From NCBI GenBank assembly GCA_943354835.1, contig CALRDH010000002.1, positions 106,270 through 170,269 of the forward strand: DNA of 64,000 nucleotides, given 5' to 3'. This document shows, in pieces, positions 20,278 through 40,577 of the stretch. Numbering within the stretch: position 1 is the stretch's first letter; each line of letters starts with the position of its first letter. Below the pieces are notes generated by a model. It saw only the letters and a list, made by a program, of their open reading frames with translations. It was not told the DNA's origin and ran no database searches. Both the position numbers and the translations under genes were made by a program. The stretch comes from a candidate division WWE3 bacterium. GTDB taxonomy: Bacteria; Patescibacteriota; WWE3; 2-01-FULL-39-13.

Positions 20278-20353
20278 TGGTGGTGAGGGTGAGACTCGAA
20301 CTCACATAGCCGGTTTTTCAGACCGGTGCCTTGACCATCTTGGCTACCTCACC
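20278..20353 (-). tRNA. tRNA-Phe(GAA)
   Basis: 76 nt; acceptor GGTGAGG/CCTCACC; anticodon loop CTGAAAA; CCA encoded. Confidence 0.7.
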
Positions 20354-20429: not shown

Positions 20430-20505
20430 TGGTGCACCTGGTAGGATTCGGACCTACGACCTACCGCTTAGAAGGCGGTCGCTCTATCCCCTGAGCTACA
20501 GGTGC
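20430..20505 (-). tRNA. tRNA-Arg(TCT)
   Basis: 76 nt; acceptor GCACCTG/CAGGTGC; D-loop AGCTCAGGGGATAGAGC; anticodon loop CTTCTAA. Confidence 0.8.
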
Positions 20506-20545
20506 GTAATTTCTTCTGCTTAATTCTATATGATAGGCATAACAC

Positions 20546-20564
20546 TTATCAAGCACTGATAAAT
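20546..20564. repeat. Direct repeat (left copy) flanking Fic cassette
   Basis: ttatcaagcactgataaat; 18/19 identical to 21536..21554; both copies overlap a stop codon and encode the C-terminal residues FISA. Confidence 0.8.
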
Positions 20565-21436
20565 GGAACACCAATCTTCCATATGCCTTTTTCTAAAAAT
20601 GCTTCAATAGTTTGTCTTGTAGCCTTATTTATAAGATTTGAATGGGAAATTTTATTTATCCTAGAGTATTCAGCTAGTGTAATAATCTTCTTGTTTTCTA
20701 GATAGGCCAAGCGCTTATGGTAGCTGATAGTAAGGGCTTTTGCAACGATTTCATTCATAATCTCCGTTTTGCCATTTTTATCAAACTCGTTAAATGCTTC
20801 ATAATATTTATTACGGTCGATATACTTAATATTAATAGGGACAAAACCTTCTCTTATAAGTATGTAGTTATTCAGTACCCGACCAATACGACCATTGCCA
20901 TCAATAAATGGATGTATATATTCAAACGTTAAATGTAGCTTTGCTATGCGATTTATAATATTTAAATGATTATTAGAATTGTGTTCTACAATCATATTTT
21001 GCAATCTTTCATGAATTTCTTGTGGTGGAGGTGCGATGTGACTACCAACGCGAACAAACTCTTTGTCCTTTCTAAATCGTCCCGCAATATCATCTCTAAT
21101 GTTAGCAATAAGCATTTGATGAAGTGATAAGATAATATCCAATGTTAACTCCTGCTCTTTTGCTTTTGTATTGATATATGAAACAACTCGCGCAAGATTT
21201 TTTGCTTCAAAAATTTCTCGTTCACTTATAAATCTATCAAGGTCGATTTGCAGCAAAATCTTTTCTGTTTCTTCAAGTGTAAGTGTGCTGTTTTCGATTG
21301 CATTTGAGTTAAAAACCTGTTCGGCGACTTCTGCTTCACTTATTAGGTTAATCAAAGATTCCTTCCCAATAGAAGATTTATAATATCTATCACGGAGAAT
21401 GTTTATTTTGTTGTATGCAGCAAGTATTTTTGCCAT
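20549..21436 (-). CDS. Fic family protein (class II, N-terminal inhibitory motif)
   Basis: Fic motif HPFIDGNGRIGR; inhibitory motif SNAIEN; flanked by 19-bp direct repeats. Confidence 0.9.
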   Translation of the reverse strand: MAKILAAYNKINILRDRYYKSSIGKESLINLISEAEVAEQVFNSNAIENSTLTLEETEKILLQIDLDRFISEREIFEAKNLARVVSYINTKAKEQELTLDIILSLHQMLIANIRDDIAGRFRKDKEFVRVGSHIAPPPQEIHERLQNMIVEHNSNNHLNIINRIAKLHLTFEYIHPFIDGNGRIGRVLNNYILIREGFVPINIKYIDRNKYYEAFNEFDKNGKTEIMNEIVAKALTISYHKRLAYLENKKIITLAEYSRINKISHSNLINKATRQTIEAFLEKGIWKIGVPFISA

Positions 21437-21443
21437 ATATTAA

Positions 21444-21522
21444 TTGTAGGGTTTTTCACGCTTTTGTCAACACAATCGTGAAAACATATCATAAAAGCGG
21501 GCTTTTTCACGTTTTTGGTTGC
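21444..21522. promoter_or_regulatory. Two tandem palindromic operator-like sites TTCACG-N16-CGTGAA upstream of Fic
   Basis: Site 1 21444..21471, site 2 21495..21522; identical half-sites and spacing; 8-85 bp upstream of the Fic start codon. Confidence 0.6.
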
Positions 21523-21535
21523 AATATCGTGAAGG

Positions 21536-21554
21536 TTGTCAAGCACTGATAAAT
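21536..21554. repeat. Direct repeat (right copy) flanking Fic cassette
   Basis: ttgtcaagcactgataaat; overlaps the stop of membrane gene 21539..22504. Confidence 0.8.
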
Positions 21555-22504
21555 TTCTTGTTTATGTTTATTGAGGTGTATCCAAGTCCTATAAATATGA
21601 ATCCGAGTATTACTAATGACAATGGCCATCCTATGGAATCAGCAAAATATTCACCTGTTACGTAAGAAATGAATGCTAAGAGGGCTAAAGTACTTACTAC
21701 AAGTATTGTTTTGCTTCGTAAATAGACAGACAGATAAACTCCCGATAAAGCTAAGAATGGATATAGGATTTCCCAAAGTGTTGAATCGTATATTAATTCA
21801 AATGTAGTTGTGAATATTATAAATGTTGAAGCAAAGTATAAAGGTCTAGTTAATATACTGTTCCAAGTATTTCTAAATGATTGTCCAAGGATTAGGTAGC
21901 TTATACCAATTATTATTGCGATATATGAAAACTGTGTGTCAGTAAATGGAGCTACCTCGTTTACAGACATGATTATCGCGCCAATAGTCGCTGTCATGTT
22001 TGCTATTGTGAATAGTGTTAATACTGGTGTTTTATGTATTAAGTTTAAAAGAACATAAAGCATGGAAATTATTGAAAATATTATTGCAATATGAATTGGT
22101 TTTGGGTCGAAAGACGCAATTTCCATAAGCGTCACCATTGCTCCACCTGGAATTAAAACTCCACCTAATGCATGAAAGACGCTTCCTAGCATGTCATCTT
22201 GCTTGTCTTTAATAATAATTGATCCAAGAAATGTTAGTAAAAAGCCGACTCCTAGTGTTACTAATATGTGTCCGAATGAACCAAGATCTTCCCAAATTTG
22301 AGCCACAAAAATTACTATTCCAATTATTACAATTGCAGCACCTAAAAAGTAAAACATTTTTGTAACCGAAAACTTGAAAATGCTTTGTTTTAGTTCAGCT
22401 TTTAAAAGGCTAGATAAATCTTCTTTTGAGATCTCCCCCATTCGCATTTTAATTGATAATTCTTGAAGCAAATCTTGTTTTGTCATTTTTATTTTGAAAT
22501 CCAA
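21539..22504 (-). CDS. Polytopic membrane protein (hypothetical)
   Basis: Soluble N-terminal helix then about 8 TM segments. Confidence 0.45.
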   Translation of the reverse strand: MDFKIKMTKQDLLQELSIKMRMGEISKEDLSSLLKAELKQSIFKFSVTKMFYFLGAAIVIIGIVIFVAQIWEDLGSFGHILVTLGVGFLLTFLGSIIIKDKQDDMLGSVFHALGGVLIPGGAMVTLMEIASFDPKPIHIAIIFSIISMLYVLLNLIHKTPVLTLFTIANMTATIGAIIMSVNEVAPFTDTQFSYIAIIIGISYLILGQSFRNTWNSILTRPLYFASTFIIFTTTFELIYDSTLWEILYPFLALSGVYLSVYLRSKTILVVSTLALLAFISYVTGEYFADSIGWPLSLVILGFIFIGLGYTSININKKFISA

Positions 22505-22947
22505 CCGCGAAAATTAATTTTTGAATAATATGGATAAGATGCATCTTCAGATCCTGTTAAGTCAATATGTCTTCTAGAATCATTTTTCTGAAGAAAATAA
22601 GTGTAATCAGATCCTCTTGATCCCCCAAAAAACATATTGTTGGATGTGTATTTCCTTGTAAAAGTTATACCATCTGGAGAAGTTGTGTCAGAATCGATAA
22701 TTTTATAATTATTAATTTCTATTGGACCAAGTTCCCTATTCTGATTCGTTTTAGTATCATGTAAATAAAATCTTACTAACTCGGCTTTAGAATCTTTCGG
22801 AGATTTGCTTGAAACCTCATAAATAAAATTGTAATCAGTTGAAATAAAAAGGCTTGGAATATAAACATAAAGCCAAAAACCTATAATGGCTAAGATTGGT
22901 AGCGAAAAAGCTAAAATAACAGAAAAATTCTGCTTTAAAAACTTCAT
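22489..22947 (-). CDS. Membrane-anchored hypothetical protein
   Basis: N-terminal TM; 16-nt overlap with the downstream gene. Confidence 0.4.
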   Translation of the reverse strand: MKFLKQNFSVILAFSLPILAIIGFWLYVYIPSLFISTDYNFIYEVSSKSPKDSKAELVRFYLHDTKTNQNRELGPIEINNYKIIDSDTTSPDGITFTRKYTSNNMFFGGSRGSDYTYFLQKNDSRRHIDLTGSEDASYPYYSKINFRGWISK

Positions 22948-23016
22948 AGTGAAATAATAACACGTGAAGGCAAACTAAGATTAGAAATTGACAAGAATTA
23001 AGTCTAAAATAAGTAC

Positions 23017-24012
23017 ATGCAAAATAATTCGCAGATTATTATTTACCATACTAAAGAAGGTGAAACAAAAATTGATGTGCGATTTGATGGTGATACAGTT
23101 TGGCTGACACAAAAAATGATGGCTGAGCTTTTCGGTAAAGATAGAAAAACAATTACAGAGCATATTGGAAATATCTTTAAGGAAGGAGAACTGACGGAAA
23201 ATTTAGTATGCCGGAGATTCCAGCATACTGCCTTGGACAAGAAGAAATATAATGTTATTTTTTATAATCTTGATGTTGTCTTAGCGGTTGGCTACAGAGT
23301 AAAATCCCCGCAAGGAATGAAGTTTCGTCAGTGGGCAACAGAAAGATTAAAAGAATATCTGATCAACGGATTTTCACTCAATGAGGAAAAATTAAAATCA
23401 GGAAGGTCCATGGAATATTTCGATAAACTTCAAGCGAAGCTTCGGGAAATACGCCTTTCTGAAAGGATCTTTTATCAAAAGATAAAAGATATTTATACAA
23501 CAAGCATAGATTATGATGCAAAAGATAATAAGACGATTGAATTTTTTAAAGTGGTGCAAAACAAGCTACTTTGGGCAATAAGTAAAAAAACAGCTGCAGA
23601 ATTAGCGCATCGAAGGTCAGATCATAAACTTCCATATTTGGGTATGCAGTCTTTCGATAAAAATGATGAAAAGGCTATAACAAAAAAAGATGTGAGTATT
23701 GCCAAAAATTATCTCAATGAAAAAGAAATAAAAATGCTTGGACTACTCGTTGAACAGTATTTAGCATTTGCGGAAACCATGGCAGAAGAGCAAAAAACAA
23801 TGAAAATGTCCGATTGGATAAAACGGCTGGATGTGATTTTACAGATGAGTGGTAAAGAAATCTTAAAGCATGCTGGGAAAATATCTCATGAGCTAGCAAT
23901 AGCAAAATCAGAAAAGGAATACGAGAAATTCATACATAAACAAAAAAAACTAGAGCGAGAAGAAAGCATAAAAGAGCTTGAAGCTGATATGAAGGCTTTG
24001 AGAAGCGATTAG
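23017..24012 (+). CDS. RhuM-family virulence/genomic-island protein
   Basis: N-terminal DVRFDGDTVWLTQKMMAELFGK...NLDVVLAVGYRVKSPQGMKFRQWATERLKEYLINGF typical of the RhuM family. Confidence 0.7.
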   Translation: MQNNSQIIIYHTKEGETKIDVRFDGDTVWLTQKMMAELFGKDRKTITEHIGNIFKEGELTENLVCRRFQHTALDKKKYNVIFYNLDVVLAVGYRVKSPQGMKFRQWATERLKEYLINGFSLNEEKLKSGRSMEYFDKLQAKLREIRLSERIFYQKIKDIYTTSIDYDAKDNKTIEFFKVVQNKLLWAISKKTAAELAHRRSDHKLPYLGMQSFDKNDEKAITKKDVSIAKNYLNEKEIKMLGLLVEQYLAFAETMAEEQKTMKMSDWIKRLDVILQMSGKEILKHAGKISHELAIAKSEKEYEKFIHKQKKLEREESIKELEADMKALRSD

Positions 24013-24135
24013 TTATTTTATTTTCTGGTGCACCATCTGGGACGATGTTCGAACCTATCTGACCTCAACAATTGATCCCAAGGAGAAGTCTGCTCTCATT
24101 GTTGCCATTTCCTATTTCCGAAAGGAGGAACAACA

Positions 24136-24606
24136 ATGAACTGGTTCAAATGCCTTACATCTCGCCCAAAAATAGCACCCTCTATATTATATGACGAGAA
24201 TACCTTTTATCAAGCCTTCTTTAAGGACTTAGAATCCTCTCGAAAGGAGGTGATAATCGAATCTCCCTTTATAACTAGTTTAAGAATGCAGAAATTTTAT
24301 CCAGCATTTCAAAAAATGCTGGATCGTAGAACTAAAGTTCTTATTATTACAAGAGATCCATCGGATCTAGATCCAAATATAAGAGATTTTGCTACAAATG
24401 AGATTATGCAAATGTCAGAAATGGGAGTAAGTGTTACACTACTCAAAGGCAATCATCACCGAAAACTTGCTATCATAGATAGAAAAATAACATGGGAAGG
24501 AAGCTTGAATATTCTTTCCCAAAATAATAGTATGGAAATTATGAGAAGAATCGAAGATAATAAGACAGCCCAAGATGTAATAAGGTTTTTAAAGTTAAAA
24601 GTATAA
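24136..24606 (+). CDS. PLD-family (HKD) nuclease, Nuc-like single-HKD protein
   Basis: HKD motif HHRKLAIIDRKITWEGSLN (HxKx4Dx6GSxN); strong RBS AAGGAGG. Confidence 0.75.
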   Translation: MNWFKCLTSRPKIAPSILYDENTFYQAFFKDLESSRKEVIIESPFITSLRMQKFYPAFQKMLDRRTKVLIITRDPSDLDPNIRDFATNEIMQMSEMGVSVTLLKGNHHRKLAIIDRKITWEGSLNILSQNNSMEIMRRIEDNKTAQDVIRFLKLKV

Positions 24607-24652
24607 AATTAGTTTAGTGTTATATAATTAAATTTGTTGAAAGGAAAAAACC

Positions 24653-24883
24653 ATGAACAATAATGATCAAGTAATAAAAAAGACAGAATTAGTAATTGAC
24701 GCTCTTTCGTATGCTCATAAAAATCAATTGGATATCAATAACGAGGATGATGTAAAAGTAATTCTTAAAGCCGTTGATCCAGAACAGGCGGATAACACGG
24801 ATGTCGTGGAATTTATGGGACTACTCAAAGCCGCTAACACTTTAATGAAGGAAGATGCCAAACGTAGAAAGAGCATGAATTAA
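24653..24883 (+). CDS. Small hypothetical protein
   Basis: ORF with RBS GGAAAAAACC upstream; no recognisable motif. Confidence 0.3.
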   Translation: MNNNDQVIKKTELVIDALSYAHKNQLDINNEDDVKVILKAVDPEQADNTDVVEFMGLLKAANTLMKEDAKRRKSMN

Positions 24884-25033
24884 AGTCCTTTCTCAAATGC
24901 TGAGAGTAGCTAAAATGCACAGAGTATATGGAAGATTAATCGTGGGAGCAAAAAAAATATGTGTCAGATCGGAGGAAAACAGCCAAAGAGATCTTTGAGC
25001 TTTGCCAGTTAAATAAAATCTTCTAAATATAAT

Positions 25034-25621
25034 ATGAATAGCCGTGAGGAATTGCAAAGCTATGTCCCAGCAGAACAAAGTGAACCTTTGGTATTAAGGG
25101 ATGATTTGATGGATGTTGTAGGCAGATTGGGTCAAGTATTACCTCGTGAAGTTATCTGGCAACTTTTCTCCAGTAGCCCTAGTGAAACGGGCGGTAAAGT
25201 TGTTTTCCCATATTTTCGAGTAGATAGCTCTCTGACTATTATCCAAACTTATCATCATATGTTAAGCGATCCAGAATTTCGTAAAAAACTTACTCCAGAA
25301 AAAATAGATAAATATTATGAGTTGGCAAGTAAACAGGCTTTAGAAGCTATTACATGGGTTGAGGTCGGGTTCGAAGGATTAGAAAACCTAGCTCATAGTT
25401 CGGCGTCAAGAAACTGGACCTCTGGTGTTGGTCACTTTGTGACTGATGAAGAGAGGGCGCAAGGCATTATTACTAATGGCAAAAATTTATATTTAAAAAA
25501 TTTAGGATTATTTGTGGAATATCGTGACAAGCAGGGTATAACTGACGATTGCTTTACAGAGTATGGACTTGAGCATTTATTGAATGGGTTTAGGACTGTT
25601 GAAACTCTTCATGGAAGGTAG
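25034..25621 (+). CDS. Hypothetical protein
   Basis: 195-aa ORF, no recognisable motif; GC appears slightly higher than surroundings by eye. Confidence 0.35.
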   Translation: MNSREELQSYVPAEQSEPLVLRDDLMDVVGRLGQVLPREVIWQLFSSSPSETGGKVVFPYFRVDSSLTIIQTYHHMLSDPEFRKKLTPEKIDKYYELASKQALEAITWVEVGFEGLENLAHSSASRNWTSGVGHFVTDEERAQGIITNGKNLYLKNLGLFVEYRDKQGITDDCFTEYGLEHLLNGFRTVETLHGR

Positions 25622-25628
25622 CTCTATT

Positions 25629-26417
25629 CTATTCAAAAAATAAGGTTTTATTTCCTGTTTGTCTTATTACTTCGTTGCCTTGAATTAGATACCAACTTAT
25701 CCGATTTTCATTCAAGTCACTCTTAAACGAGCCCAAATATGGAGTTCCTCCCATTTGATAAATTAAGTTAACAGTACTTTCAACAGGAAGAGTGTTTTCA
25801 TTGACAGTAAGAAAATTTTGCTTTGTTTCAAGGTTAATCTCACCAATATATAAATTCTCATTTATAACCGATACAGTGGTTAAAATATTGTCTGATTGGT
25901 ATAGGCGTTTCCACAAGTTTGGAGTTTCTGGATTTATGCTAATGAGTCTGTTATCCGCATAGTTTTGGGATTGTTTCGTAATACAAAGAATCTCAGAAGT
26001 AGATTTAATAAAAGCAGAATCACAGAACTCACCCAAGCTTTTATCGTTATAAAAAGTTTCTTTTCGATTGTAGACTACATTTTCATCGTAATAATCTAGT
26101 ATTACATCCTGAATTTCTTTAACCTTTTCCCTTGTTTCAAGATTATAAATTGTTGTTAATGGCTTGTTTCCTTGTACCAAAATAAAATATGGGTAGTGAA
26201 ATAGTATTTTGTCTGGGTATCCTTTAAATTCGTATGTATCGTTAAATACTTGTAGTTTAGAATTCTCGAGGAAAACTCCATTACTCTCAACCACAGGAGT
26301 GCTTTTTCTACTAAATAAATAGAAAAGACCTAAAAACAATACAAGAATTAAGATTACTCCAATTTGGAGTAATCTTCGTTGATTTGCATCAAGATTATTT
26401 AGTTTAATATCTTTCAT
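25629..26417 (-). CDS. Membrane-anchored hypothetical protein (possible T4SS accessory)
   Basis: N-terminal TM; last gene of the T4SS-like minus-strand operon. Confidence 0.4.
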   Translation of the reverse strand: MKDIKLNNLDANQRRLLQIGVILILVLFLGLFYLFSRKSTPVVESNGVFLENSKLQVFNDTYEFKGYPDKILFHYPYFILVQGNKPLTTIYNLETREKVKEIQDVILDYYDENVVYNRKETFYNDKSLGEFCDSAFIKSTSEILCITKQSQNYADNRLISINPETPNLWKRLYQSDNILTTVSVINENLYIGEINLETKQNFLTVNENTLPVESTVNLIYQMGGTPYLGSFKSDLNENRISWYLIQGNEVIRQTGNKTLFFE

Positions 26418-26421
26418 AGTT

Positions 26422-27186
26422 CTATTTTATATAACTTAACGGATTTACCAACTTCCATACATTACTATCCTTTATTTGTATCTCATAATGCAAATGTTCG
26501 CCTGTAGCAAAGCCAGTTCCACCCATTTCACCAAGTGGCGTTCCTGCTTGTATTTTACTACCGGAGTTAACATAAATATCTTTAAAATGAATATACTTTG
26601 TTTTTAGATCTCCACTATCGTTCATAATCTCAACCGTTTTTCCTCCTTCACCATCTACATAGGTTGATGACGTACCTGAATGTGTAGCGTGAATAATTAC
26701 CTTATTGTTTTCTTTATACGAATTGCTTTGTGCATAGTAGGTCGAATTTGGAATAATATCTATTCCTGTGTGGTTTTTACCAAATTGAAGAAAATAAGCA
26801 GGATCCATAAAACCAGCTGTAACAGATGTGTAAGACATGCCCGATCCTCCAAATGGATTTTGACTTGGTATCGTAGACTTAGCAAATTCCTCATTTATTC
26901 CGTTTAAATTATCTCCGACACTTGCAGCAACATACTTAAAAAATCCAGTTGGAGATAAAAATATTGTTGAAAATATTGCAATAAAAGTCACAAACAACAT
27001 TAAAGTCAACATCACAATTGAAGCGATAAACCCAAGAATTGGGCCTTTGAATTTAGCAACAACATCACCTGCAAGGGGTATGGGGATTATTAGATTAACT
27101 ACTATCTTGATAAGTGAATCAACAATGAATCCAAATGGATCATTTTTAGCATGTCGAATATTTTTCGCTACGCTTAATGCCTTCAT
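26422..27186 (-). CDS. M23-family metallopeptidase (peptidoglycan hydrolase) with N-terminal TM segments
   Basis: M23 motifs NHTGIDI and GEHLHYEI. Confidence 0.8.
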   Translation of the reverse strand: MKALSVAKNIRHAKNDPFGFIVDSLIKIVVNLIIPIPLAGDVVAKFKGPILGFIASIVMLTLMLFVTFIAIFSTIFLSPTGFFKYVAASVGDNLNGINEEFAKSTIPSQNPFGGSGMSYTSVTAGFMDPAYFLQFGKNHTGIDIIPNSTYYAQSNSYKENNKVIIHATHSGTSSTYVDGEGGKTVEIMNDSGDLKTKYIHFKDIYVNSGSKIQAGTPLGEMGGTGFATGEHLHYEIQIKDSNVWKLVNPLSYIK

Positions 27187-27192
27187 AAAATA

Positions 27193-29316
27193 TTAAGAAG
27201 TAAATACCAATGGCTGTTCAAACGGTAAAACAATTATATTTACTCTTACATGCTCGTTTTCTCTAAATAACACCACTTCTCCTATTCCCAAATGTCCAAG
27301 TTGCTGTTTTTCCTCATCAGTCATCGGGTAAATGGTTCCGATATCGCCAAGTGTTGCATACGACTGTTTTAGTAGGATTTTTGTTTCTGAGTTTGTAACA
27401 ATTGCCTTACCGTACTCATTATCTAAAAAGTCCTCAACATCTTGAGTAATAGAAACAACTCCAATATTTCGTTTTCTAGCTTGCTTTACAAGCTCTCTAA
27501 AAAATACCGCCACCTCAGGGTCAATTAATAGTTTGTGAGCCTCATCAATAAAAAGCATTCTCTTTTTGCCATTGTATTTGTTCACTAAATTCCAGATTAG
27601 TGAGGTTAAAAGATACATTGCAGGATCACGTTTCTCATCTTTTTTTAGATCGTGTAAATCAAGCACAATAATATCGTTATTAAGCTCAAGCTTTCGAGAC
27701 GAATTAAATACTCCGCGCAGACTACCAGTAGATAGAACACTTAAATCTTTTTGCATTGGGTGATCATTTAATAGCTCAAGTAAATTTTCAAATGTCGGGG
27801 TTCCTTGATCATAAAGTTTTATAAGTGCCTCATCTAAAAATGCACCGTCATAATGTACAGGGGGAATAAAGAACTTAAAAAAGGTCTTGAGTGTTGAAAT
27901 ATGATCAAGAATATCGTTTTCTTGCAGACTTGAAACATAAAAAGGATTAATGCCGTTTTCTCTTGAGAAAGAGATAACTTCTCCACCAAGTGCTTTTGCA
28001 ATATTGACATATTCGCCTTCTGGATCAATGACAATAATCTGCACACCTCGCATATACAGCCTATTCATAAGTATTTTTGCAGTCACACTTTTACCCGATC
28101 CAGATACTCCAAAAATATTTATATTATTGTTTCGTGATGTAAACGGATTAACGAACGCCAAGCTGTTGTTATAAGCGTTTACACCCATAAATATACCTTC
28201 TGGATCATTGAGTTGCTTTGAAACAAAAGGAAGTAAGTACGAAGCCGCAGTAGATTGCAAAATTCTATTTTCTTGTACATGATCAATATTAAATGGTAAA
28301 AAGTTTTTGAATGCCTGTTTTTGACCGTAGGTATATTGATTAAAAGTCATGTCCATTGTTCCAGTGATGTTTTGAAGTTGTTTATGAAGATCTGAAAGCT
28401 GTTTTGTATCTTTGGCTTCAAGTTGTAAATAAAGTGAGTATAAAACGCCTTTTTCAGCCTCATGCACTAACTCATCAATAAAGCTCATAACCTCTTCAAT
28501 ATTTTTATCAACCTGTTGATCTCGAAGTTTCCCTTGTTTTAACCTCTCATTTTGTTGCATCTCTAAAACAGACAATCTTTGTCGTGCTTTTTTCAAAAGT
28601 TCACTACTTGGAGATGGTTGAATAAAAATACTTATGGTAAATGGCAACGCGGAGCTTAAAAGCCTAAAAAATACATAGGGACTTAAATAAGCTGGAATAT
28701 CGGCAAGATAGTAGTATCGTTTTAACTTTTCTCCTACTTGAACATGGCTATCATGTTCTTGAATATACTCACTCTTGTATATTTTATGACCATTTCGTTC
28801 GACCTTTAGACCATTTGCATCATTTTCAATGTTCAGGTGTACTTCGGCTTTCCGAGAAGTTTCCAAAGCTTTGTAGTATAGTTTCAAGTCTTTCCTATAC
28901 TTAAAGTAATTGCGGACAAACCAAATTGGATTTTTTGTTTTTACAATTGATGGTTTATGAACAAGTGGCAACTGATTATGAATAAACGGAGTTTGCTCAA
29001 TAAGTTCTTGTTGTTTTTCAATAACACTCATCAAGCGTTTTATCTCATCTCGTAGGGCTAGTTTTAGTTTGCTATCATTTATTTTAGGTTCTCCATTAAA
29101 AAAACTTTCTTCAATTTCTGAAATACCTTTGCTTTTTGTTTTATAAATAGCATATTGTCGTTTTAGCTTTTTAAGCTCTTCATCTTGTTTTTCTTTCTCA
29201 TACGAAAGGTGCTCCAAGCGATTTTGAAGTCTTTGACTTAAATTAAAGACACGAATATCGTTATATGTATTCTTTATTTTGTTTTTAATGGTTATAGGTA
29301 TAGCTTTTATTTTCAT
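27193..29316 (-). CDS. VirB4-family type IV secretion ATPase
   Basis: Walker A GVSGSGKSVTAK, Walker B RMLFIDEAHKLL, C-terminal VSITQD; 707 aa. Confidence 0.85.
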   Translation of the reverse strand: MKIKAIPITIKNKIKNTYNDIRVFNLSQRLQNRLEHLSYEKEKQDEELKKLKRQYAIYKTKSKGISEIEESFFNGEPKINDSKLKLALRDEIKRLMSVIEKQQELIEQTPFIHNQLPLVHKPSIVKTKNPIWFVRNYFKYRKDLKLYYKALETSRKAEVHLNIENDANGLKVERNGHKIYKSEYIQEHDSHVQVGEKLKRYYYLADIPAYLSPYVFFRLLSSALPFTISIFIQPSPSSELLKKARQRLSVLEMQQNERLKQGKLRDQQVDKNIEEVMSFIDELVHEAEKGVLYSLYLQLEAKDTKQLSDLHKQLQNITGTMDMTFNQYTYGQKQAFKNFLPFNIDHVQENRILQSTAASYLLPFVSKQLNDPEGIFMGVNAYNNSLAFVNPFTSRNNNINIFGVSGSGKSVTAKILMNRLYMRGVQIIVIDPEGEYVNIAKALGGEVISFSRENGINPFYVSSLQENDILDHISTLKTFFKFFIPPVHYDGAFLDEALIKLYDQGTPTFENLLELLNDHPMQKDLSVLSTGSLRGVFNSSRKLELNNDIIVLDLHDLKKDEKRDPAMYLLTSLIWNLVNKYNGKKRMLFIDEAHKLLIDPEVAVFFRELVKQARKRNIGVVSITQDVEDFLDNEYGKAIVTNSETKILLKQSYATLGDIGTIYPMTDEEKQQLGHLGIGEVVLFRENEHVRVNIIVLPFEQPLVFTS

Positions 29317-30122
29317 CGTAGTGTTTGTTTTGCAAAACTTATTAACTCGTCAACCTCCAAAGCGCGTACTTGTATGTTGCAAGCAAAAAGAGCAGAAGAA
29401 AAACGCATAGTCATGTCATGTAACTTTTTCATACTCGCCAGCTTTTCATTGGGTTTTGTCGGGTTACAAGATACCGTAAAAACGGCATAATGCTTTGTTG
29501 CTGTAAAGTTACTTTCATTTATCATATCGGTTAAGTTTTCAATGTACTGTGCAATCAAAGGCTCGCGTTTAGTATTTGATTTTGCATAGAGCGAAAAGAA
29601 ATGTTTTGAGTAGTCTTGTGTTTTAGCCTGTTCTTTTTTCACAATAAACTGCACTTGATCTGGCAAAACATGAAGCATTTGTTTTAACTTTAAAAAGAAG
29701 TGTTCTCGATCTTGATCATTTAAAAGTGATATATCAAAAGGCTCAACTTCTAAAAGTTGAATAATGCTATTTTTACGAATAACCAAGTTGTCTTGAATAG
29801 TAAAATCAACAAAGTATGGTTCTAGTTCTTTTTGTCTAAATGTTTTCTTGCCCTTTTTAAACATAATTGCTCTTGGAAAAATTTTATAAATTGGTTGATT
29901 ATCAATTCTTTGAGTTATAAATCCTACAAAAGCTATCTCAAGTACAATAAGTGAAGCCAAGTACATATTCCAATTAAATGCATGAAATACATATGTAAGC
30001 AAAAAGTACAAACTTCCTGCAATAAACACCCCTCCAACTAAAAAGATGGTGCTGTCTGTAAAAAACAGACTTCTTAAAATGTGTTGACGAATATCGTCTT
30101 TATATATTCTTACGTTTTTCAT
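29313..30122 (-). CDS. Small T4SS-associated membrane protein (hypothetical)
   Basis: Two TM helices; translationally coupled (4-nt overlap) to VirB4; start trimmed to MKNVRIY. Confidence 0.4.
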   Translation of the reverse strand: MKNVRIYKDDIRQHILRSLFFTDSTIFLVGGVFIAGSLYFLLTYVFHAFNWNMYLASLIVLEIAFVGFITQRIDNQPIYKIFPRAIMFKKGKKTFRQKELEPYFVDFTIQDNLVIRKNSIIQLLEVEPFDISLLNDQDREHFFLKLKQMLHVLPDQVQFIVKKEQAKTQDYSKHFFSLYAKSNTKREPLIAQYIENLTDMINESNFTATKHYAVFTVSCNPTKPNEKLASMKKLHDMTMRFSSALFACNIQVRALEVDELISFAKQTLR

Positions 30123-31863
30123 TTTTGTTATATGAATACATTCGAATGATAGAATCGGCCGTTTCTTTTCCATGTCGTTCGATAATTACTCCTTTAATTC
30201 CAAGCGCACTATTTCTTTTTTGCGAAACATCTAAAAAGTTTCTAACCTTTTCAGGAGGGCTTGATTTTGTAACATAGGCATAGCTAATTGCTTTGCCTTG
30301 TTTTTGTGATTCTTGCATAGCGTTGTAATGATGAGGGTTTGGATTTTTCTTGCTAAAGGTTGAAAGATCAATAAAGCGATCTTCTTCCAGTTGAACTGTT
30401 TCAAGTTTATCCTCTGATACACCATCTTGAACGGCTTCCATTCGCGTTGGATAGTACGAGGTAAGACCTGTTTGTTTGTCTTCATGTTTGTATGCTTCAC
30501 CACTAATTGCAACTATCCCTTGTTTTGCATTTTCGGTTTGTATATTTAGTCCTTTCCCTTCGAGATCTTTTGAGAATCTTGTTTTTTGACTACTTGGTGT
30601 GACTTCACTTACTGTATGGCTTGAGGTTTCATTTGAGTATGTATTCTTGTTTGTTGATCCACCCCCACCGTAAAATTCGTTTTCTTTAGAATCCGATCTA
30701 TTTTTTAGTATTTGGTCTCGAACAAAGTGTCCTGCAACTGTGCCTAAGCTTCCACCGATCAAACCTCTTTGAAAATCTTTGACCTGAGATTGTACTGGTC
30801 CAGTTACTGCTCTTGTAGCCATTGCAGCCTGCATATTTGTGGCAAACGATCCCCAAGTGTCACCAAATATTCTTCCAACAAGCATGTTTACTCCACCTAA
30901 AAAGAATAAAAAGCCGGTGTAAAAAAAGAGCATTCCAACTGTTGGCCCTTTTGAACTTAAAATACTGCTAAAGATATCATTGGCAATTGCAAAACCAAGT
31001 ACAAATGCTGGTTGCTGAATTAAAAAGGTAAACCATGTTTTAAAAAAGGTGTTTACTATTCCTTGAGTTCTCTCAGACAAAGCAAATGGAATAATGATTG
31101 GATACAATACTCCTAAAAATACGAGTGATGCAAACCGAATAACAAACTGAAAACCAATATATACAAATCCTCCGAGTAAAAATAGAAATGTAAGGACAAA
31201 TAAAAATGTTTGTACAATAAATTTGCCAAATGACTTGAGCACTCCGCCATTCATCGAAACATCGTAGCTTGGAATACCATATTGCTCTGATTCATTACCT
31301 GCCTGAATTTTTTCTTCTGATGAATCAAGATAATCATTTAAAAACCCAGTAAATTGTTGAGTTGTTGTGATTTTATCTACCAATAAGTTATTAAACTGAA
31401 TACTGTACGATAAGATTGATGGGACGGTTAAAAACAAAACTACGGTAATAAGAAAACGAATTCCAAATGATTTTAGCTCTTGAAGGTTATCTGATCCTAT
31501 TTTTGAGACGGCTATTACTGCAATTGATATAGCAATAATAGGTATGGCAAGTTGGTTAAAAATATCTCGGTATTTTGTAACTCCAGGAATTTCTGTGTTG
31601 TCTTTTAGTTTTATAGTTTCTCCAAAAGGGTTTGGAGTATAAAAAATGAATCCTCCCATAAATGAGTCAAATCCAGCGATAAAATCTTGAAGTAAAGTAA
31701 TGATTGATGAAGGCTTGTCTTCAACCGTAAAGTTGTTTACCCATTGTACTTGTGGTGGAGGAGTTGGTGTTGGTGCGGGCTCTTGTGCAAAAGCGGGAGA
31801 AATATTAGCGAATGTGAGAATGCACAAAAAGATAATTAGTTTTAATGCTTTCATGCATATCAA
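30100..31863 (-). CDS. VirB6/TrbL-like polytopic T4SS membrane protein
   Basis: Signal peptide, Pro/Thr-rich linker, at least 6 TM helices, hydrophilic C-terminal extension. Confidence 0.5.
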   Translation of the reverse strand: MICMKALKLIIFLCILTFANISPAFAQEPAPTPTPPPQVQWVNNFTVEDKPSSIITLLQDFIAGFDSFMGGFIFYTPNPFGETIKLKDNTEIPGVTKYRDIFNQLAIPIIAISIAVIAVSKIGSDNLQELKSFGIRFLITVVLFLTVPSILSYSIQFNNLLVDKITTTQQFTGFLNDYLDSSEEKIQAGNESEQYGIPSYDVSMNGGVLKSFGKFIVQTFLFVLTFLFLLGGFVYIGFQFVIRFASLVFLGVLYPIIIPFALSERTQGIVNTFFKTWFTFLIQQPAFVLGFAIANDIFSSILSSKGPTVGMLFFYTGFLFFLGGVNMLVGRIFGDTWGSFATNMQAAMATRAVTGPVQSQVKDFQRGLIGGSLGTVAGHFVRDQILKNRSDSKENEFYGGGGSTNKNTYSNETSSHTVSEVTPSSQKTRFSKDLEGKGLNIQTENAKQGIVAISGEAYKHEDKQTGLTSYYPTRMEAVQDGVSEDKLETVQLEEDRFIDLSTFSKKNPNPHHYNAMQESQKQGKAISYAYVTKSSPPEKVRNFLDVSQKRNSALGIKGVIIERHGKETADSIIRMYSYNKNEKRKNI

Positions 31864-31865
31864 AG

Positions 31866-32150
31866 TTATACGGTTCCACCAACAAATTGCTTAATAATTC
31901 CAGCCAATGTTGCGGCACCAAATACAAGTAAACCACCGATTAGAATATTGATGATCCAACCTCTAAGTGTTGATTTACGCTCAGTATCATCTCCGCTCAT
32001 AACTAAAAAGATACCAAGTGTAGCAATGGCGATAGCCATAACAGGAAGAGAATACCATTGAAGAGTCTTGACTATACCCCATAGAAGACTGTCAAGGTTT
32101 GTGAACTGAATGGGTTGAGCTGCGTCATACCCCGGTATTCCGTTTGCCAT
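31866..32150 (-). CDS. VirB2/TrbC-like pilin subunit
   Basis: 94 aa with two hydrophobic helices in hairpin arrangement; first gene of the operon. Confidence 0.5.
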   Translation of the reverse strand: MANGIPGYDAAQPIQFTNLDSLLWGIVKTLQWYSLPVMAIAIATLGIFLVMSGDDTERKSTLRGWIINILIGGLLVFGAATLAGIIKQFVGGTV

Positions 32151-32366
32151 AATAGTTTATTTTTCTTTGGGGGCAGAACTTATAACAACACTATGAGATT
32201 AACAAGCGTAGTATAATTCTACATATAGTAAATGTCAACAATAAATGTTGATTTAATAACCTAATTCAAAATTCCGAAGGCAATATTGTGTTTAATCGTG
32301 ATTTATTGACTATAATAAGTTCAAGACACTGAGTAGAGTAAAAAGGTTATAATTACAAATAACGTT

Positions 32367-35042
32367 ATGAAATTTAAATTTGAATCTAATCTAAAATTTC
32401 AACTAGATGCTATATCATCTGTGACTGATTTATTTGTAGGTGCTCCATTTATCAAACCAGAGGAAGCTATCTTTTCTGAAGTCGCTAGTAATGTTTTAAG
32501 AATATCTCCAGAGGAAATATTTGCCAATCGTGACAAAGTTATAAAAAATAATGGTATTACGAACTCCTGTAAGGAAGATGTCTTAGATTTTTGTGTTGAG
32601 ATGGAAACAGGTACAGGGAAAACCTATGTATATCTAAGAACTATCCTCGAGCTTCACCAAAAGTATGGTCTTTCCAAATTTATTATCGTTGTGCCAAGCG
32701 TTGCGGTTAAAGAGGGAGTAATGAAAACCCTACAGATCACCAAAGATCACTTTGAGGAACTTTATAACTCTATCCCCTATAGTTACTTTGAGTATGACAG
32801 CAAGAAAATAAATAAAGTAAGAAGCTTTGTTTACTCTAATCACCTGCAAATCATGATAATGAATGTTCAAGCATTTAACGCTGATGACAGAATTATTAAT
32901 CAAGAAAGAGATTCAAATAATGGTGAAAAACTAATTGATTTAATAGAGAAAATCAGCCCTGTTTTGATACTAGATGAACCTCAAGTTGGCATGGATACAT
33001 CCAACACAAAAGATAGAAGAAGAAAACTTAACCCACTTTTTACCCTTCGTTATAGCGCTACTCATAAAGTAGTAAAGAATCTGATTCATAGGCTTAGTCC
33101 TTATGAAGCCTACAATCAAGGTTTGGTCAAAAAAATTGAAGTTTTTTCAATTCATGAGAGCAATACCCAAAGCAATGTTTATGTTGAATTTGAAGGTATT
33201 AAGTTGACCAGTGATAAGCCACAGGCAAAACTCAAGATTAGTTATAGGCTTGCTAGTGGGGATTTTAAGATAAAGTCTGGATATTTTAAAGATGGTGATG
33301 ATCTAGAAGAAAAAACTAAAAACCCTGTATATAAAGGGTGGGTTATCGAAAGAATACTCAAAGATCCTCTAAATGGTACGAGCACGATTAAATTTAGTAA
33401 TGGCATAAACTTAACACAGGGCGAATCGCACGGTATAGATAAAGAAAGTATCTTTAGAGAACAGATTCGCTGGACAATCAAAAAGCACTTCGATAAAAAG
33501 GATAAGTATAAAGATAAGAAAATTAAGGTTTTATCACTCTTTTTTATAGATAGAGTAGCTAATTATATAGAAGACAATTCATTAATAAGGGTCTTATTTG
33601 AGAAAGTTTACACTGAGGAGTATAAAAATAGATATAAAATTCTACCAGACAATATATCCAAGGTTCATGATGGGTATTTTGCAAAGACTTCACAAGGAGA
33701 CTATACCGATAGTGAACTATCAATGAGTAAAAACAGTGAAGCTTACCAAAAGATTCTAAAAGATAAAGAAAGACTACTTTCTTTTGAAGAACCGCTTGAA
33801 TTTATTTTCTCTCACTCAGCCTTGGGTGTTGGTTGGGACAACCCCAATGTTTTTAATATCTGTACTCTGAATGAAACTGAGAGTTTAATCAAAAAACGAC
33901 AGGAAATAGGGAGAGGCTTACGTTTAAGTGTTACTCAAGATGGTGTTCGATACAGAGACTCGCTAGATGTTGAAGAAGGCAAGGAAATCAACCTGCTAAC
34001 GGTAGTAGCAAACCAAAGCTATTATGCCTTTACTCAGTCTTATCAAGAAGAATTGATAGCAGAATATGGCTTTGGTGAAAAAAAACCAGATATTAGAAAT
34101 GCTAGACATGAACCAAAGCAAATTAGACTTAATAAAAATGCTATTACAAGCAATGATTTTCAAAACCTTTGGAAAAAAATATCTCAAAAAACCAGATGTA
34201 AGGTTTTCTTTAGGGAAGATTCAATTATTGAGAAATGTATTGAAAGTTTAAACACAATTGTTGTCCCAGAAGTTGTCATATCAATTAACTTAAATAGAAT
34301 TACGGGAATTTTAGAACAAGAAGAAGACATGATTCAAAGCAAGAATGTGGGCCAAACAGAAGCAGAAACCAAAGCCAAGTTTGCTCCTATGAATCTCTTT
34401 GAAGAAATTGCAAAAAATACAGCCTTGAGTGTAGCTACTGCTACTAAGATTTTAGAAGGCGTTCATAACAAGCAAATGATCATAAGAAACCCAGTCGTTT
34501 ATCTTACAGAAGCGATTAAACGTATTAAAAGAGTTTTAAATGATGAAATGGTTAGATTAGTTAGATATGAAGCTTTAAATGAGAGTTACTCACTTAAAGA
34601 ATTTGAAGATGTAGTTACAACTTATCAGCAAAGTAACATCATCGAAGTTAATAAGAGCATTTATGATCATGTGATTTGTGACAGCGATATTGAGAGAAAC
34701 TTTGCCTTAGATATAGATGAAGAAAACAAAGTTAGAATGTTTGTAAAACTACCACATTGGTATACTGTACCAACTCCTATTGGAAATTATAACCCAGACT
34801 TTGCTTTGGTACTAGAAAAAAAGAATTTAGATGATGGGGGTAAGTCCAATTTTTACTTTGTAATTGAAACCAAAGGATCAAGAGAATGGGAATCCTTAAA
34901 GGAAGATGAGAAAATGAAGATAGACTGTGCTATCAAGCATTTTGAAGCTATTGGCTTAAAGGAGTATTTAGCTCCAATCGAGAGTATGAGTACTTTTAAG
35001 TCAAAGGCAAATGAAGTTACTGGCGAAAATGTGTTTAGTTAA
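32367..35042 (+). CDS. res: Type III restriction enzyme Res subunit (SF2 helicase-nuclease)
   Basis: Helicase motif I METGTGKTYV, motif II LILDEPQ; N-terminus characteristic of Type III Res. Confidence 0.85.
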   Translation: MKFKFESNLKFQLDAISSVTDLFVGAPFIKPEEAIFSEVASNVLRISPEEIFANRDKVIKNNGITNSCKEDVLDFCVEMETGTGKTYVYLRTILELHQKYGLSKFIIVVPSVAVKEGVMKTLQITKDHFEELYNSIPYSYFEYDSKKINKVRSFVYSNHLQIMIMNVQAFNADDRIINQERDSNNGEKLIDLIEKISPVLILDEPQVGMDTSNTKDRRRKLNPLFTLRYSATHKVVKNLIHRLSPYEAYNQGLVKKIEVFSIHESNTQSNVYVEFEGIKLTSDKPQAKLKISYRLASGDFKIKSGYFKDGDDLEEKTKNPVYKGWVIERILKDPLNGTSTIKFSNGINLTQGESHGIDKESIFREQIRWTIKKHFDKKDKYKDKKIKVLSLFFIDRVANYIEDNSLIRVLFEKVYTEEYKNRYKILPDNISKVHDGYFAKTSQGDYTDSELSMSKNSEAYQKILKDKERLLSFEEPLEFIFSHSALGVGWDNPNVFNICTLNETESLIKKRQEIGRGLRLSVTQDGVRYRDSLDVEEGKEINLLTVVANQSYYAFTQSYQEELIAEYGFGEKKPDIRNARHEPKQIRLNKNAITSNDFQNLWKKISQKTRCKVFFREDSIIEKCIESLNTIVVPEVVISINLNRITGILEQEEDMIQSKNVGQTEAETKAKFAPMNLFEEIAKNTALSVATATKILEGVHNKQMIIRNPVVYLTEAIKRIKRVLNDEMVRLVRYEALNESYSLKEFEDVVTTYQQSNIIEVNKSIYDHVICDSDIERNFALDIDEENKVRMFVKLPHWYTVPTPIGNYNPDFALVLEKKNLDDGGKSNFYFVIETKGSREWESLKEDEKMKIDCAIKHFEAIGLKEYLAPIESMSTFKSKANEVTGENVFS

Positions 35043-35081
35043 ATTTTTTTTGAGAGTATTATAAAAAGAACAGTTAAGAAT

Positions 35082-37034: not shown

Positions 37035-37060
37035 ATAAATAATGCATATATCTAAGCTGT

Positions 37061-39076: not shown

Positions 39077-40577
39077 TTAAATATTTCAAAATAGTGTATA
39101 TCTTCAACATCGCCATTGTGTCCATTTCACAGTACCTGAGTAGGTTTTCTTTAATTGTTTCTTTTTTTGAAGTTTCTGCATTTTCATATACCATTTCAAA
39201 CCAGCTCGTCATGGCTGTTGCGCCTTCTCCAATTTCGAGTTCATTGTATGAAAAATCAGGAGCAAAAAGTGGAAGCACATTTTTTATTGAGTAACTCCCT
39301 TTTAGTTTTGGATCTGCGTACCATTGTTTTTGAAATATATCCATGAGGTCATAGATCCGCTCATTCATATTTAGGCAAAAATCTGCAAACTGAGGGTGAA
39401 TTTCTGCCATGCGTTTATTTTGTGTTCCTTCAAATGATTTATTCCAAACGATAAGCGAGCCTTCTTTTCCAATGTGTTTTTGCAGTTCTGTCAAAAAGTT
39501 TGGGATAGGATCAATTTGAGACGTTTCTATAAATTCAAAATGTTCTAGCTCTCGGCCTTGTTGTTGTATGTGCAGTGACCACTGAAAAGGCATCTGATCA
39601 AATGGTTTGTAACCATCATACATAGGAATAGCCGGGTTATATGATTCATAATCGATAAAATAAAGTGGGTAGATTACTCCACTTAAATCTTTTTGAATCT
39701 TGTTTGAATCGATCTCAACCTTATTGTTTTGAGCAACATCTACTTGAAAGCGTTGTATTTTTGAAAGTGAAAAGTCTTTTGGTACATCAAAAACACTTTC
39801 AATACCTTGATCAATAAGATCTCGCATCTTGGCAACATTCGCCGATAATCGATTAATATCGTAGATAGAATAATCTGGAAGATCTGGGTGACAGATATCG
39901 AGACAAGGACACTCTTTTGGTTTAATGCATTTATCAGCAGATTGTAGATTGTTTTTTTGGGCTGTAGTAAAAGCTTCTTGTCGTAACTCTATAACTTCAT
40001 CGGTTAGTTTGCTAACTTCTTCTGTAATATCAGAGACAGTGAATAATTCAGATAGGCTTACATCTCCACTGCGTACATATTCTTTATTAAGATGTAGTAT
40101 GTTTAGCGTTCCTATGTCGTAAGACTCTCTAAATACGAGGTATTGAAAAGTGGCATCGAATTTGTGTGTCTTTTTAACATCATTGGTACTTTTGATTTCA
40201 TAAATATCCCACTTATTTGTTTTGACGTTTTTAATGAGAACATCTGTTCTTGCCTGAAAGTTGCCGTGTATGTGTGTTGGCTGTAAAAATACATTATCAG
40301 GGTCAATCTTGTAACTTGGGATGAGGATGTTCTGAATGTATTTTTCAGCTTGCTCTTCTACCTCATACCCTTGATCGAATAGGTGTTGAATAAAAACATT
40401 TATTTCTTTTTCAGAAAGCTTATTGTTTTTCAGTGCCCAGAGATGCCGTGGAGCATCGAGGAAAGCTATAAAGTCGGTTTTTGTGATCATCATGTATCTT
40501 CCGATTATACTGGAAAATGAAATTATATCTCTCATTATTGGGTGGTTTTCCCTTTTCTTCCTATCATGCTTCTTCAT
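39069..40577 (-). CDS. DUF2779-like dual nuclease: RecB/Cas4-like PD-(D/E)xK with 4-Cys cluster plus C-terminal DEDDy 3'-5' exonuclease-like domain
   Basis: N-terminal D(VLI)...YEIK...QYLVF (D, ExK, QxxxY) and CIKPKECPCLDIC cluster; C-terminal Exo I DYE, Exo III YCEMD; 8-nt convergent overlap with 37061..39076. Confidence 0.55.
   Translation of the reverse strand: MKKHDRKKRENHPIMRDIISFSSIIGRYMMITKTDFIAFLDAPRHLWALKNNKLSEKEINVFIQHLFDQGYEVEEQAEKYIQNILIPSYKIDPDNVFLQPTHIHGNFQARTDVLIKNVKTNKWDIYEIKSTNDVKKTHKFDATFQYLVFRESYDIGTLNILHLNKEYVRSGDVSLSELFTVSDITEEVSKLTDEVIELRQEAFTTAQKNNLQSADKCIKPKECPCLDICHPDLPDYSIYDINRLSANVAKMRDLIDQGIESVFDVPKDFSLSKIQRFQVDVAQNNKVEIDSNKIQKDLSGVIYPLYFIDYESYNPAIPMYDGYKPFDQMPFQWSLHIQQQGRELEHFEFIETSQIDPIPNFLTELQKHIGKEGSLIVWNKSFEGTQNKRMAEIHPQFADFCLNMNERIYDLMDIFQKQWYADPKLKGSYSIKNVLPLFAPDFSYNELEIGEGATAMTSWFEMVYENAETSKKETIKENLLRYCEMDTMAMLKIYTILKYLIK

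Follow-up and report, generated by a model that had tools for sequence, protein, structure and literature searches.

How did the Fic gene at one edge of an accessory region in a candidate division WWE3 bacterium come to lie between two nearly identical 19-bp repeats? The locus belongs to a 64,000-nucleotide stretch of contig CALRDH010000002.1 (GenBank assembly GCA_943354835.1, positions 106,270 to 170,269 of the forward strand), hereafter the window, which we compared with related loci and contigs, L001 to L100. A sequence-only reading of this DNA had taken Fic to be an inserted cassette. We found that the repeat pair is real and appears to duplicate the native 3′ end of the neighboring DUF2157 gene, but that Fic does not look like a recent arrival, being resident in a sister lineage that is free of the adjoining 28-kb island. 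The best explanation overall, which we put forward tentatively, is that a Fic module inserted at the junction between that island and the chromosome before the sister lineage split off, duplicating 19 bp, and that the island was later excised and reacquired and Fic deleted in another relative, L082.

Read on the minus strand, the genes at this site are a DUF2157 membrane gene, Fic, tRNA-Arg(tct), and tRNA-Phe. The right 19-mer, which we call the orphan copy, lies at 20546-20564 and the left one at 21536-21554, both on the minus strand. They are given by TTATCAAGCACTGATAAAT and TTGTCAAGCACTGATAAAT, for which the minus strand reads ATTTATCAGTGCTTGATAA and ATTTATCAGTGCTTGACAA, respectively. The two copies are identical at 18 of 19 positions and are separated by 990 bp (330 codons). 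They have dyad symmetry, TTATCA-gtgct-TGATAA, as read directly from the sequence. As had been noticed, both adjoining proteins end in FISA: the 295-residue Fic open reading frame (ORF; 20549..21436, minus strand) terminates as ...GVPFISA-stop within the right copy, which supplies the FISA-stop, and the DUF2157 ORF (21539..22504, minus strand; Pfam PF09925) terminates as ...NKKFISA-stop within the left. The 971-bp insert holds the two putative operators of Fic, proximal and distal, and the Fic ORF, with nothing else and no gene fragments; the 990-bp unit is a gene module complete in itself. A search for further copies of the 19-mer, as the earlier reading had proposed, found only these two in the window, even with up to three mismatches (0.18 matches expected in shuffled sequence).

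The relatives of the two proteins indicate to which of them this ending belongs. DUF2157 relatives end in ...INKKYIAN, ...KKYISN, or ...KRYISD, that is, in a family pattern ...KKYI[AS]x, and FISA therefore appears to be the native DUF2157 ending. Fic relatives are conserved up to ...WKIG[VI] (EAFLEKGVWKIG[VI]) at residue 290, followed by varied tails of 0 to 16 residues, and by this comparison the PFISA tail is foreign to the Fic family. Directly downstream of Fic lies tRNA-Arg(tct) (20430..20505, minus strand), which is syntenic in L082 and in L083-L086, and beyond it tRNA-Phe(gaa) (20278..20353, minus strand), which is 100% identical in L086 of the sister lineage; both were called by ARAGORN. 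A consensus scan placed a promoter-like site for the two tRNA genes, TTGATA-18-TAGAAT, at 20523..20552 on the minus strand (10/12 matches), and its −35 hexamer sits inside the right 19-mer. That 19-mer is kept at 19/19 positions in L086, where the neighboring spacer is about 78% identical (read by eye).

The closest relatives of Fic, at 84% protein and 80.5% DNA identity, are on contigs L083-L086 and L088; other family members reach about 75% at the DNA level. These sister contigs carry, in order, superoxide dismutase (SOD), peptidyl-prolyl isomerase, tRNA-Val, tRNA-Leu(gag), 2 to 6 nt, the distal operator, the proximal operator, Fic, the 19-mer region, the spacer, tRNA-Arg, tRNA-Phe, and RsuA. 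By blastn they are collinear with the window, largely at 77-81% identity: the SOD to tRNA-Val block (window 51383-49924) is 79% identical, tRNA-Leu (49896-49809) 93%, the segment with the operators, Fic, the 19-mer, and tRNA-Arg (21524-20424) 77-79%, tRNA-Phe (20357-20277) 100%, and RsuA (19555-20257) 81%. Because this collinearity holds at uniform divergence, Fic appears to be a resident gene in synteny, its divergence matching that of its housekeeping neighbors. The comparison indicates that it is not a recent insertion and that the arrangement is old.

In the sister lineage Fic ends in a tail of its own, EYKKAV, and its own stop codon, followed by TTTATCAGTGCTTGATAAGTG..., and has no upstream repeat; these are the relatives with Fic and without repeats that the sequence-only reading had said would speak against it. 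The difference in the tail is small. The window has GGTGTT-CC-ATTTATC where the sister lineage has GGCATA-GAATATAAAAAGGCAGTGTA-ATTTATC, and close relatives elsewhere have EYKKK-type tails. The shared FISA, first read as the signature of an insertion, thus looks instead like a secondary fusion that arose by an 18-nt in-frame loss in the window genome. A metagenome scan for the 19-mer plus spacer returned one additional sister-lineage contig and two unrelated matches.

Short hairpin-capable repeats that copy the first ~12 nt of the adjacent tRNA (e.g., TGCCGAGGTGGC...GCCACGAGGC) are found in this region. They occur in variable number upstream of tRNA-Leu and tRNA-Arg (L083-L086) and between tRNA-Arg and tRNA-Phe, and also at L082:5446-5495 and at 20361-20430 of the window. 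We considered whether the 50 extra nt in L082 and the 70 extra nt in the window near tRNA-Arg were filler insertions and rejected the idea, as the sister lineage shows gains and losses of the hairpin-forming partial-tRNA repeats.

What the window has in surplus over the sister lineage is everything from 49809 down to about 21534; in the sister contigs nothing further separates tRNA-Leu from the distal operator. The surplus corresponds to an island of about 28.3 kb (21534..49809), delimited by Pfam scans and by collinearity breakpoints at 49809 and 21524; the exact right end, which we infer, is 21534 or 21536. At 21524, within the distal operator, the sequence again matches the island-free lineage. 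The suggestion that Fic sits at the edge of an accessory region beside tRNA-Phe and tRNA-Arg(TCT) therefore held, since the island begins there. Its genes encode RhuM, a PLD-like protein, an M23 peptidase, VirB4/TraG-like and TrbL/VirB6-like proteins, a type III restriction-modification system, RadC, Replic_Relax, T4CP, a MORC-like ATPase, and DUF2779, with DUF2157 as the terminal gene at the far end.

At the other end a large serine recombinase (48175..49902, plus strand; Resolvase, Recombinase, and Zn_ribbon_recom domains) crosses the left junction of the island into the antisense of tRNA-Leu(gag) (49810..49895, minus strand; ARAGORN), the integration target, at which the junction reads ...cggcacca followed by taaactatttttt. 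Recombinases at least 90% identical to it adjoin the 3′ ends of other tRNA-Leu genes (gag and tag) in other genomes, and so the island appears to be mobile and to target tRNA-Leu. A recombinase at the edge, the same class of target elsewhere, and an island-free allele in L083-L086 mark it as a tRNA-targeting serine-recombinase island. These features, with integration at a tRNA 3′ end and decayed and tandem elements at the locus, are shared with tRNA-targeting integrative and conjugative elements (ICEs). The members of the 90%-identity recombinase cluster (loci L094-L100) have lengths of 575, 562, 548, 494, and 481 aa, and the three that were retrieved (494, 481, and 548 aa) adjoin tRNA-Leu genes in different genomic contexts; the C terminus of the recombinase may depend on the integration site. 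Inside the island, the interval between the DUF2958 gene and the ORF after it contains a 29-nt direct repeat (97% identical; 41554-41582 and 41794-41822, 240 bp apart).

The left junction of the window, with the island at tRNA-Leu, reads CACCAT-AA-ACTATT, and the right junction, with the island at the operator, CTTGAC-AA-CCTTCACG. In L082 the two junctions read AACCAG-AA-AGTAAT and CTTGAT-AA-GTGTTATG, and the orphan copy after Fic has the same form as the latter, CTTGAT-AA-GTGTTATG; the unoccupied site in L085 reads CACCAAG-AA-GGTTCACGG. All of these fit a recombinase crossover at AA, so that the 19-mer would consist of AA and the 17 bp with which the island ends, ...TTTATCAGTGCTTGA(Y), these 17 bp being the 3′ end of DUF2157. 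The joined ends of the island, right to left, would read ...GCTTGAC-AA-ACTATTTT. On its right the island terminates in the left 19-mer; the right 19-mer, which the island-free lineage also has, is chromosomal. As the terminus of a serine-recombinase island, the left repeat would be an island junction and not a Fic junction. Of the two possibilities originally raised for the pair, a target-site duplication or a pair of recombination sites, the second fits at least as well.

RhuM, a 152-aa gene, and DUF2157 are common to the window and the relative L082 (SRR22388067), at 92.6% DNA identity over 2.6 kb. L082 has a single 19-mer, which is its island-chromosome junction, followed directly by the same spacer and tRNA-Arg, with no Fic; compared with L082, the window has exactly 990 extra nucleotides (20565-21554). 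The island remnant in L082 is only 4.4 kb long and has neither a recombinase nor conjugation genes. At L082:167-966 we noted a 770-nt insert with a single 243-aa ORF without a Pfam match. Direct repeats of ~31 nt, taken from the tRNA-Leu 3′ end, flank this insert, and a 70-nt piece left over from the left end of the island comes next. Given the decayed island and this second repeat-flanked single-ORF insert, the locus is evidently a hotspot with much decay.

An empty site with a single copy of the repeat was what the sequence-only reading had hoped to find, and L082 does have one 19-mer and no Fic. Because Fic is present in both the window and the sister lineage, however, the site in L082 is probably most simply explained by deletion of Fic through recombination between the 19-mers. 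No Fic more than 90% identical to that of the window was found elsewhere in the protein collection, and the L082 organism therefore probably does not carry the gene. The 19-mer plus spacer is identical at 50/50 positions between the window and L082, with a spacer identity of about 78% to the sister lineage (read by eye). This fragmentary noncoding evidence suggests that the window groups with L082 to the exclusion of the sister lineage. Homologs of DUF2157 at ~50% identity had no shared synteny in their genomic contexts and were uninformative on timing.

We then looked across the Fic family. The protein has more than 8000 candidate relatives, the best 120 of which are 77-84% identical to it. 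In the genome set, family members with 64-83% protein identity come from Patescibacteria, Planctomycetota, Omnitrophota, Desulfobacterota, Nitrospirota, Bacteroidota, and Proteobacteria; the protein search reached 84%. Of 70 loci, 8 are flanked by direct repeats of target DNA that are 40 nt or longer, compared with only 2 of 228 shifted control intervals. Their lengths were 96 nt (L016), 92 nt (L006), 84 nt (L074), 72-75 nt in three copies (L003), 68 nt (L048), 51 nt (L034), 49 nt (L045), and 44 nt (L009). L001 has a 19-nt repeat, and L050 a 75-nt pair of which the upstream copy lies outside the control search window. The repeats usually span the start or end of a neighboring gene. Several inserts of ~1.0-1.3 kb hold Fic alone, and inserts about as minimal as that of the window, with unrelated flanking repeats, are found at no fewer than eight other loci. 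These repeat-flanked Fic modules across the family are the most interesting lead to come from the locus.

The ends of the inserts vary: counted from the ATG, the upstream end falls anywhere between −83 and −1680, and the other end lies between about −9 and +139 relative to the last conserved codon. With duplications of 19-96 bp, no terminal inverted repeats, and no transposase or recombinase in the inserts, the modules do not qualify as transposons or insertion sequences, and because their ends and duplications are variable, a transposase or integrase with defined ends does not fit. The family pattern suggests illegitimate insertion with variable duplication. Insertion sequences of the IS1634/IS1549 type make long target duplications of variable length, and in this respect the Fic modules resemble them; they differ in lacking a transposase and terminal inverted repeats and in having varied ends. 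The tRNA genes next to Fic had been taken as part of the picture, but this is not a property of the module, as a tRNA within 4 kb was found at only 5 of 60 related loci. We likewise rejected carriage by a phage or plasmid: no relative was found in IMG/VR, and the best matches among sequenced plasmids and phages are only ~33% identical.

These observations raise a wider, rather doubtful possibility, that the Fic module (~82 bp of conserved operators and promoter plus the 290-codon ORF, with 65-84% protein identity among Patescibacteria, Planctomycetota, Omnitrophota, Desulfobacterota, Bacteroidota, and Proteobacteria) is a recombinase-less mobile gene that inserts at gene boundaries by an undescribed mechanism, duplicating 19-96 bp and so keeping the neighboring genes intact, with the window as one old example. 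If the enrichment of duplications does reflect the mode of insertion, streamlined genomes would have a recombinase-independent route for inserting single genes.

In relatives outside the Patescibacteria, a short fossil resembling the end of hsdS (...QKAFNGEL-stop) precedes Fic, and one resembling the start of hsdR (ATGAACGAAGCCGAAAC...) often follows it (L016, L017, L019, L020, L021, L023, L026, L028, L036, L039, L048, L050, and L076; motif reading only). Only in L028 does an intact gene with an hsdS-like C terminus, again by motif reading, lie directly upstream of Fic. The idea that Fic is a member of type I restriction-modification operons thus holds at most in part: of the sampled loci only this one has an intact upstream gene, and the others have short hsdS/hsdR fossil-like pieces.

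In the history that we tentatively favor, an island would first have integrated after tRNA-Leu(gag) with its right end abutting the tRNA-Arg promoter, the state seen in L082. The Fic module would then have inserted at the island-chromosome junction, with duplication of 19 bp, before the split from the sister lineage, from which the window now differs by ~21% at the DNA level. Departure and re-entry of the island via the left copy would explain why the sister lineage has Fic and the orphan copy without the island. Recombination between the 19-mers would have removed Fic in L082, and in the window genome the 18-nt in-frame loss would have taken away the tail and stop codon of Fic, so that its ORF now ends at the FISA-stop of the orphan copy. 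As for the chemistry of insertion, our best guess would be an illegitimate event of the microhomology or template-switch type, or a circularized module integrating via short homology.

Several points weigh against this history. On its right, the duplication stops exactly at the inferred crossover, as expected of a site-specific junction; for a Fic target duplication this would be a coincidence. The window equals the sister arrangement plus apparently one clean island integration, and therefore the left repeat need not be the single-event twin of the right repeat. The AA itself comes from few junctions, and two other island copies have AG at the crossover position. No circular or excised forms of the island were seen, nor any island right end from other integration sites, and scans with 17- and 18-mers (viral contigs and the loci in the set) matched unrelated or known sequence. 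Finally, the grouping of the window with L082, with the sister lineage outside, draws on a few hundred bases of DNA next to tRNA genes.

The first two of these points are also what speaks for a second account, which is possible, if on the unlikely side. Here Fic duplicated nothing: the orphan 19-mer would be an attR left over from an earlier island of the same family between tRNA-Leu and tRNA-Arg, and the two 19-mers would be the ends of two successive island occupancies. Fic would have come by replacement, or by insertion and deletion, leaving 17 bp plus AA, and the present island would have entered later, by site-specific integration at the 3′ end of tRNA-Leu, with the distal operator directly downstream. 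The orphan copy has the T variant of the L082 island whereas the resident island has C, which fits two island variants, and the locus is a proven hotspot, L082 having both tandem elements and a decayed island. Such a relic needs deletion breakpoints exactly at the tRNA-Leu end and at the operator edge, however, and excision by serine recombinases is normally scarless. It also leaves the enrichment of flanking duplications at other Fic modules unexplained. Because of that family-wide pattern, duplication at insertion is slightly favored over a relic as the source of the second 19-mer.

That Fic was newly inserted in this strain, with the 19-mers as a fresh target-site duplication and L082 as a site that was never filled, is improbable. 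The exact surplus of 990 bases over a relative with exactly one 19-mer, the difference at only 1 of 19 positions between the copies, and the probable lack of Fic in the L082 organism, given that no Fic above 90% identity was found in the protein collection, would all agree with it. The same Fic-19-mer junction is nevertheless present in a lineage ~21% diverged, in which Fic and the flanking housekeeping genes have diverged equally. A recent gain would therefore require either that Fic had inserted twice, independently, at one and the same nucleotide, or that the donor was not sampled. A repeat-flanked gene and an empty site in a relative can thus arise from layered mobile-element traffic, here island integration and excision plus repeat-mediated deletion rather than fresh insertion, which calls for caution in naming cassettes from sequence alone.

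We regard it as very unlikely that Fic is the sole surviving cargo of a decayed integrative element whose lost integrase used the 19-mer as its attachment (att) core at the DUF2157 3′ end. Elements such as ICESt1/ICESt3 and those of the SCCmec type show accretion of ICEs and cis-mobilizable elements (CIMEs) at one att site, and the locus recalls them in that a short sequence occurs once at the island end and again on the far side of a small nonautonomous segment. The dyad symmetry of the 19-mer would suit an att core, and the 770-nt insert of L082 shows that such remnants occur here. The locus differs from ICE/CIME arrays in having no third 19-mer at the left end of the island, and its small segment amounts to one regulated gene. 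A repeat of just 2 bp is what serine recombinases normally leave. The insert holds only operators and Fic, and each of the minimal inserts with unrelated flanking repeats elsewhere would need a lost integrase of its own. A generic terminator or gene-end motif, or a chance repeat, has only its location at two gene ends in its favor and can be dismissed, given two copies per 64 kb at three mismatches or fewer, no terminator-like site in the region, and matches to unrelated sequence in other collections.

Between the left 19-mer and the Fic start codon lie two palindromes, TTCACG-N16-CGTGAA, which the sequence-only reading had proposed to be autoregulatory operators. The proximal one (21455..21482) is perfect and encloses the −35 hexamer of the sigma-70-type Fic promoter, TTGACA-16-TACAAT (21443..21470, minus strand), the best promoter-like site in the region with 11/12 matches. 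The distal one (21506..21533), found in a palindrome scan, is likewise perfect and lies 51 bp upstream of the proximal. Both fall within a 49-nt tandem repeat with a period of 51 bp, and no further copies were found in the window at up to one mismatch (0.05 expected).

In about 70 of 74 related loci, which come from many phyla, the proximal palindrome recurs with two mismatches or fewer, in most cases 41-62 nt before the ATG (about −47); the background is 31 matches in 466 kb, and TTGACA and TATAAT are conserved across these loci. At the distal site, the 50- to 51-bp spacing is conserved and the right half-site CGTGAA is perfect in 53/64 loci, the full palindrome (two mismatches or fewer) being found in about 12-14 of the 64. 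Across the 74 loci, conservation sets in sharply at cAaAAsCGTGAAAA, ~82 nt before the start codon; 50-51 bp further comes TTTTCACGaTTATgTTGACAAAAsCGTGAAAA, followed by a TATAAT-like −10. Fic itself is the sole protein that travels with the palindromes across relatives. The proposal has thus gained ground, and the view that the twin palindromes are conserved, promoter-overlapping putative operators that accompany Fic is well supported by these comparisons. The contigs L085 and L083/L084 encode an identical Fic protein and differ in the operator region, the distal palindrome being complete in L085 and degenerate in L083/L084; this suggests recombination between different Fic modules.

The Fic protein matches Pfam PF02661 with an E value of 1e-22 (80.9 bits against a cutoff of 24). 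Its catalytic motif, HPFIDGNGRIGR at residues 175-186, is of the HxFx(D/E)GNGRxxR type, with residues that are invariant or nearly so in 26 homologs. The inhibitory-helix motif SNAIEN at residues 44-49 (S44, E48, and N49) is invariant and aligns with TVAIEGN of FICD. Since the (S/T)xxxE(G/N) motif lies N-terminal to the Fic core and no conserved small ORF accompanies Fic across loci, the protein appears to be a class II, intramolecularly inhibited AMP-transferase with a small C-terminal domain. Among solved structures, FICD comes nearest to it, both by sequence in a PDB search (E, 1e-25) and by fold in Foldseek (E, 4e-7); the Foldseek comparison confirmed only the Fic core.

Both motifs are intact in the window protein as in FICD/HYPE, CdFic, SoFic, and BT_2513. 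FICD differs from it in having a tetratricopeptide repeat region and a membrane anchor, and in its C-terminal domain. The protein matches the PADLOC models PDC-S04 (E, 9e-32) and SoFic (E, 7e-31), single-gene anti-phage defense candidates whose models have no curated threshold, but it falls far below the SoFic equivalog NCBIfam NF046030 (47.3 bits against a cutoff of 550). Its neighbors are defense-type genes, namely, RhuM (PDC-S05), the PLD-like gene, the type III restriction-modification genes, and PIN. On account of the PADLOC matches and the neighboring RhuM gene, Fic is probably a toxin-like or defense gene. A second, unrelated Fic gene (2975-4177; 400 aa, Fic_N and Fic domains in a SoFic-type architecture) lies 17 kb away.

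The ~45-residue C-terminal domain (residues 249-291) was modeled as beta-alpha-alpha-beta-beta by AlphaFold2 (AF2) in the full-length protein, with a predicted local distance difference test score (pLDDT) of 58-83 there and of only 55.6 overall; this model was built on a shallow alignment of sequences ~80% identical. The domain would bind the TTCACG-N16-CGTGAA sites as a dimer; the 51-bp spacing, about five helical turns, would suit cooperative binding; and binding would silence the promoter of Fic itself, by analogy with CccR. Against such a role, the isolated domain gave a poor AF2 model (pLDDT 60), and no meaningful match in Pfam or NCBIfam (E values up to 10) or relevant match among PDB profiles was found for the C terminus. 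With the AF2 models of low confidence, a DNA-binding function of this domain is only weakly supported.

CccR of Yersinia pseudotuberculosis is a Fic toxin with a C-terminal helix-turn-helix (HTH) that was shown experimentally to repress its own promoter; it has 380 aa, an HTH domain of ~100 aa, and a 10-N26-10 site (PMC9755527). The window protein resembles it in its N-terminal class II Fic domain with an inhibitory helix and its putative C-terminal DNA-binding region, and in a widely spaced palindrome over the −35/−10 of its own promoter with predicted negative autoregulation. It differs in its length of 295 aa, its ~45-aa C-terminal domain, its 6-N16-6 site, and a second site 51 bp upstream. 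It also lacks a type VI secretion system (T6SS) context, and in the PDB search the sequence similarity is confined to the Fic core. With thousands of copies in uncultivated bacteria of many phyla and a precisely conserved operator-promoter design, this widespread Fic module offers, in a predicted self-repressing AMP-transferase, a directly testable case.

Other features of the window deserve brief mention. Just past tRNA-Phe, a PIN-domain toxin gene that overlaps a small upstream gene with a weak DUF6364 match (18874-19561), possibly a toxin-antitoxin pair, adjoins the RsuA gene. A 26-nt part-copy of tRNA-Gly(gcc), 96% identical and 2.4 kb from the gene (53861-53886 and 56282-56307), flanks together with its counterpart glyoxalase, HAD-hydrolase, and other small genes, which may be another integrated segment. 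In a 1698-aa alpha-2-macroglobulin-like protein (6574-11670), the A2M domain match is immediately preceded by a Hint/PT-HINT domain (about residues 831-961) that may be an intein-like insertion.

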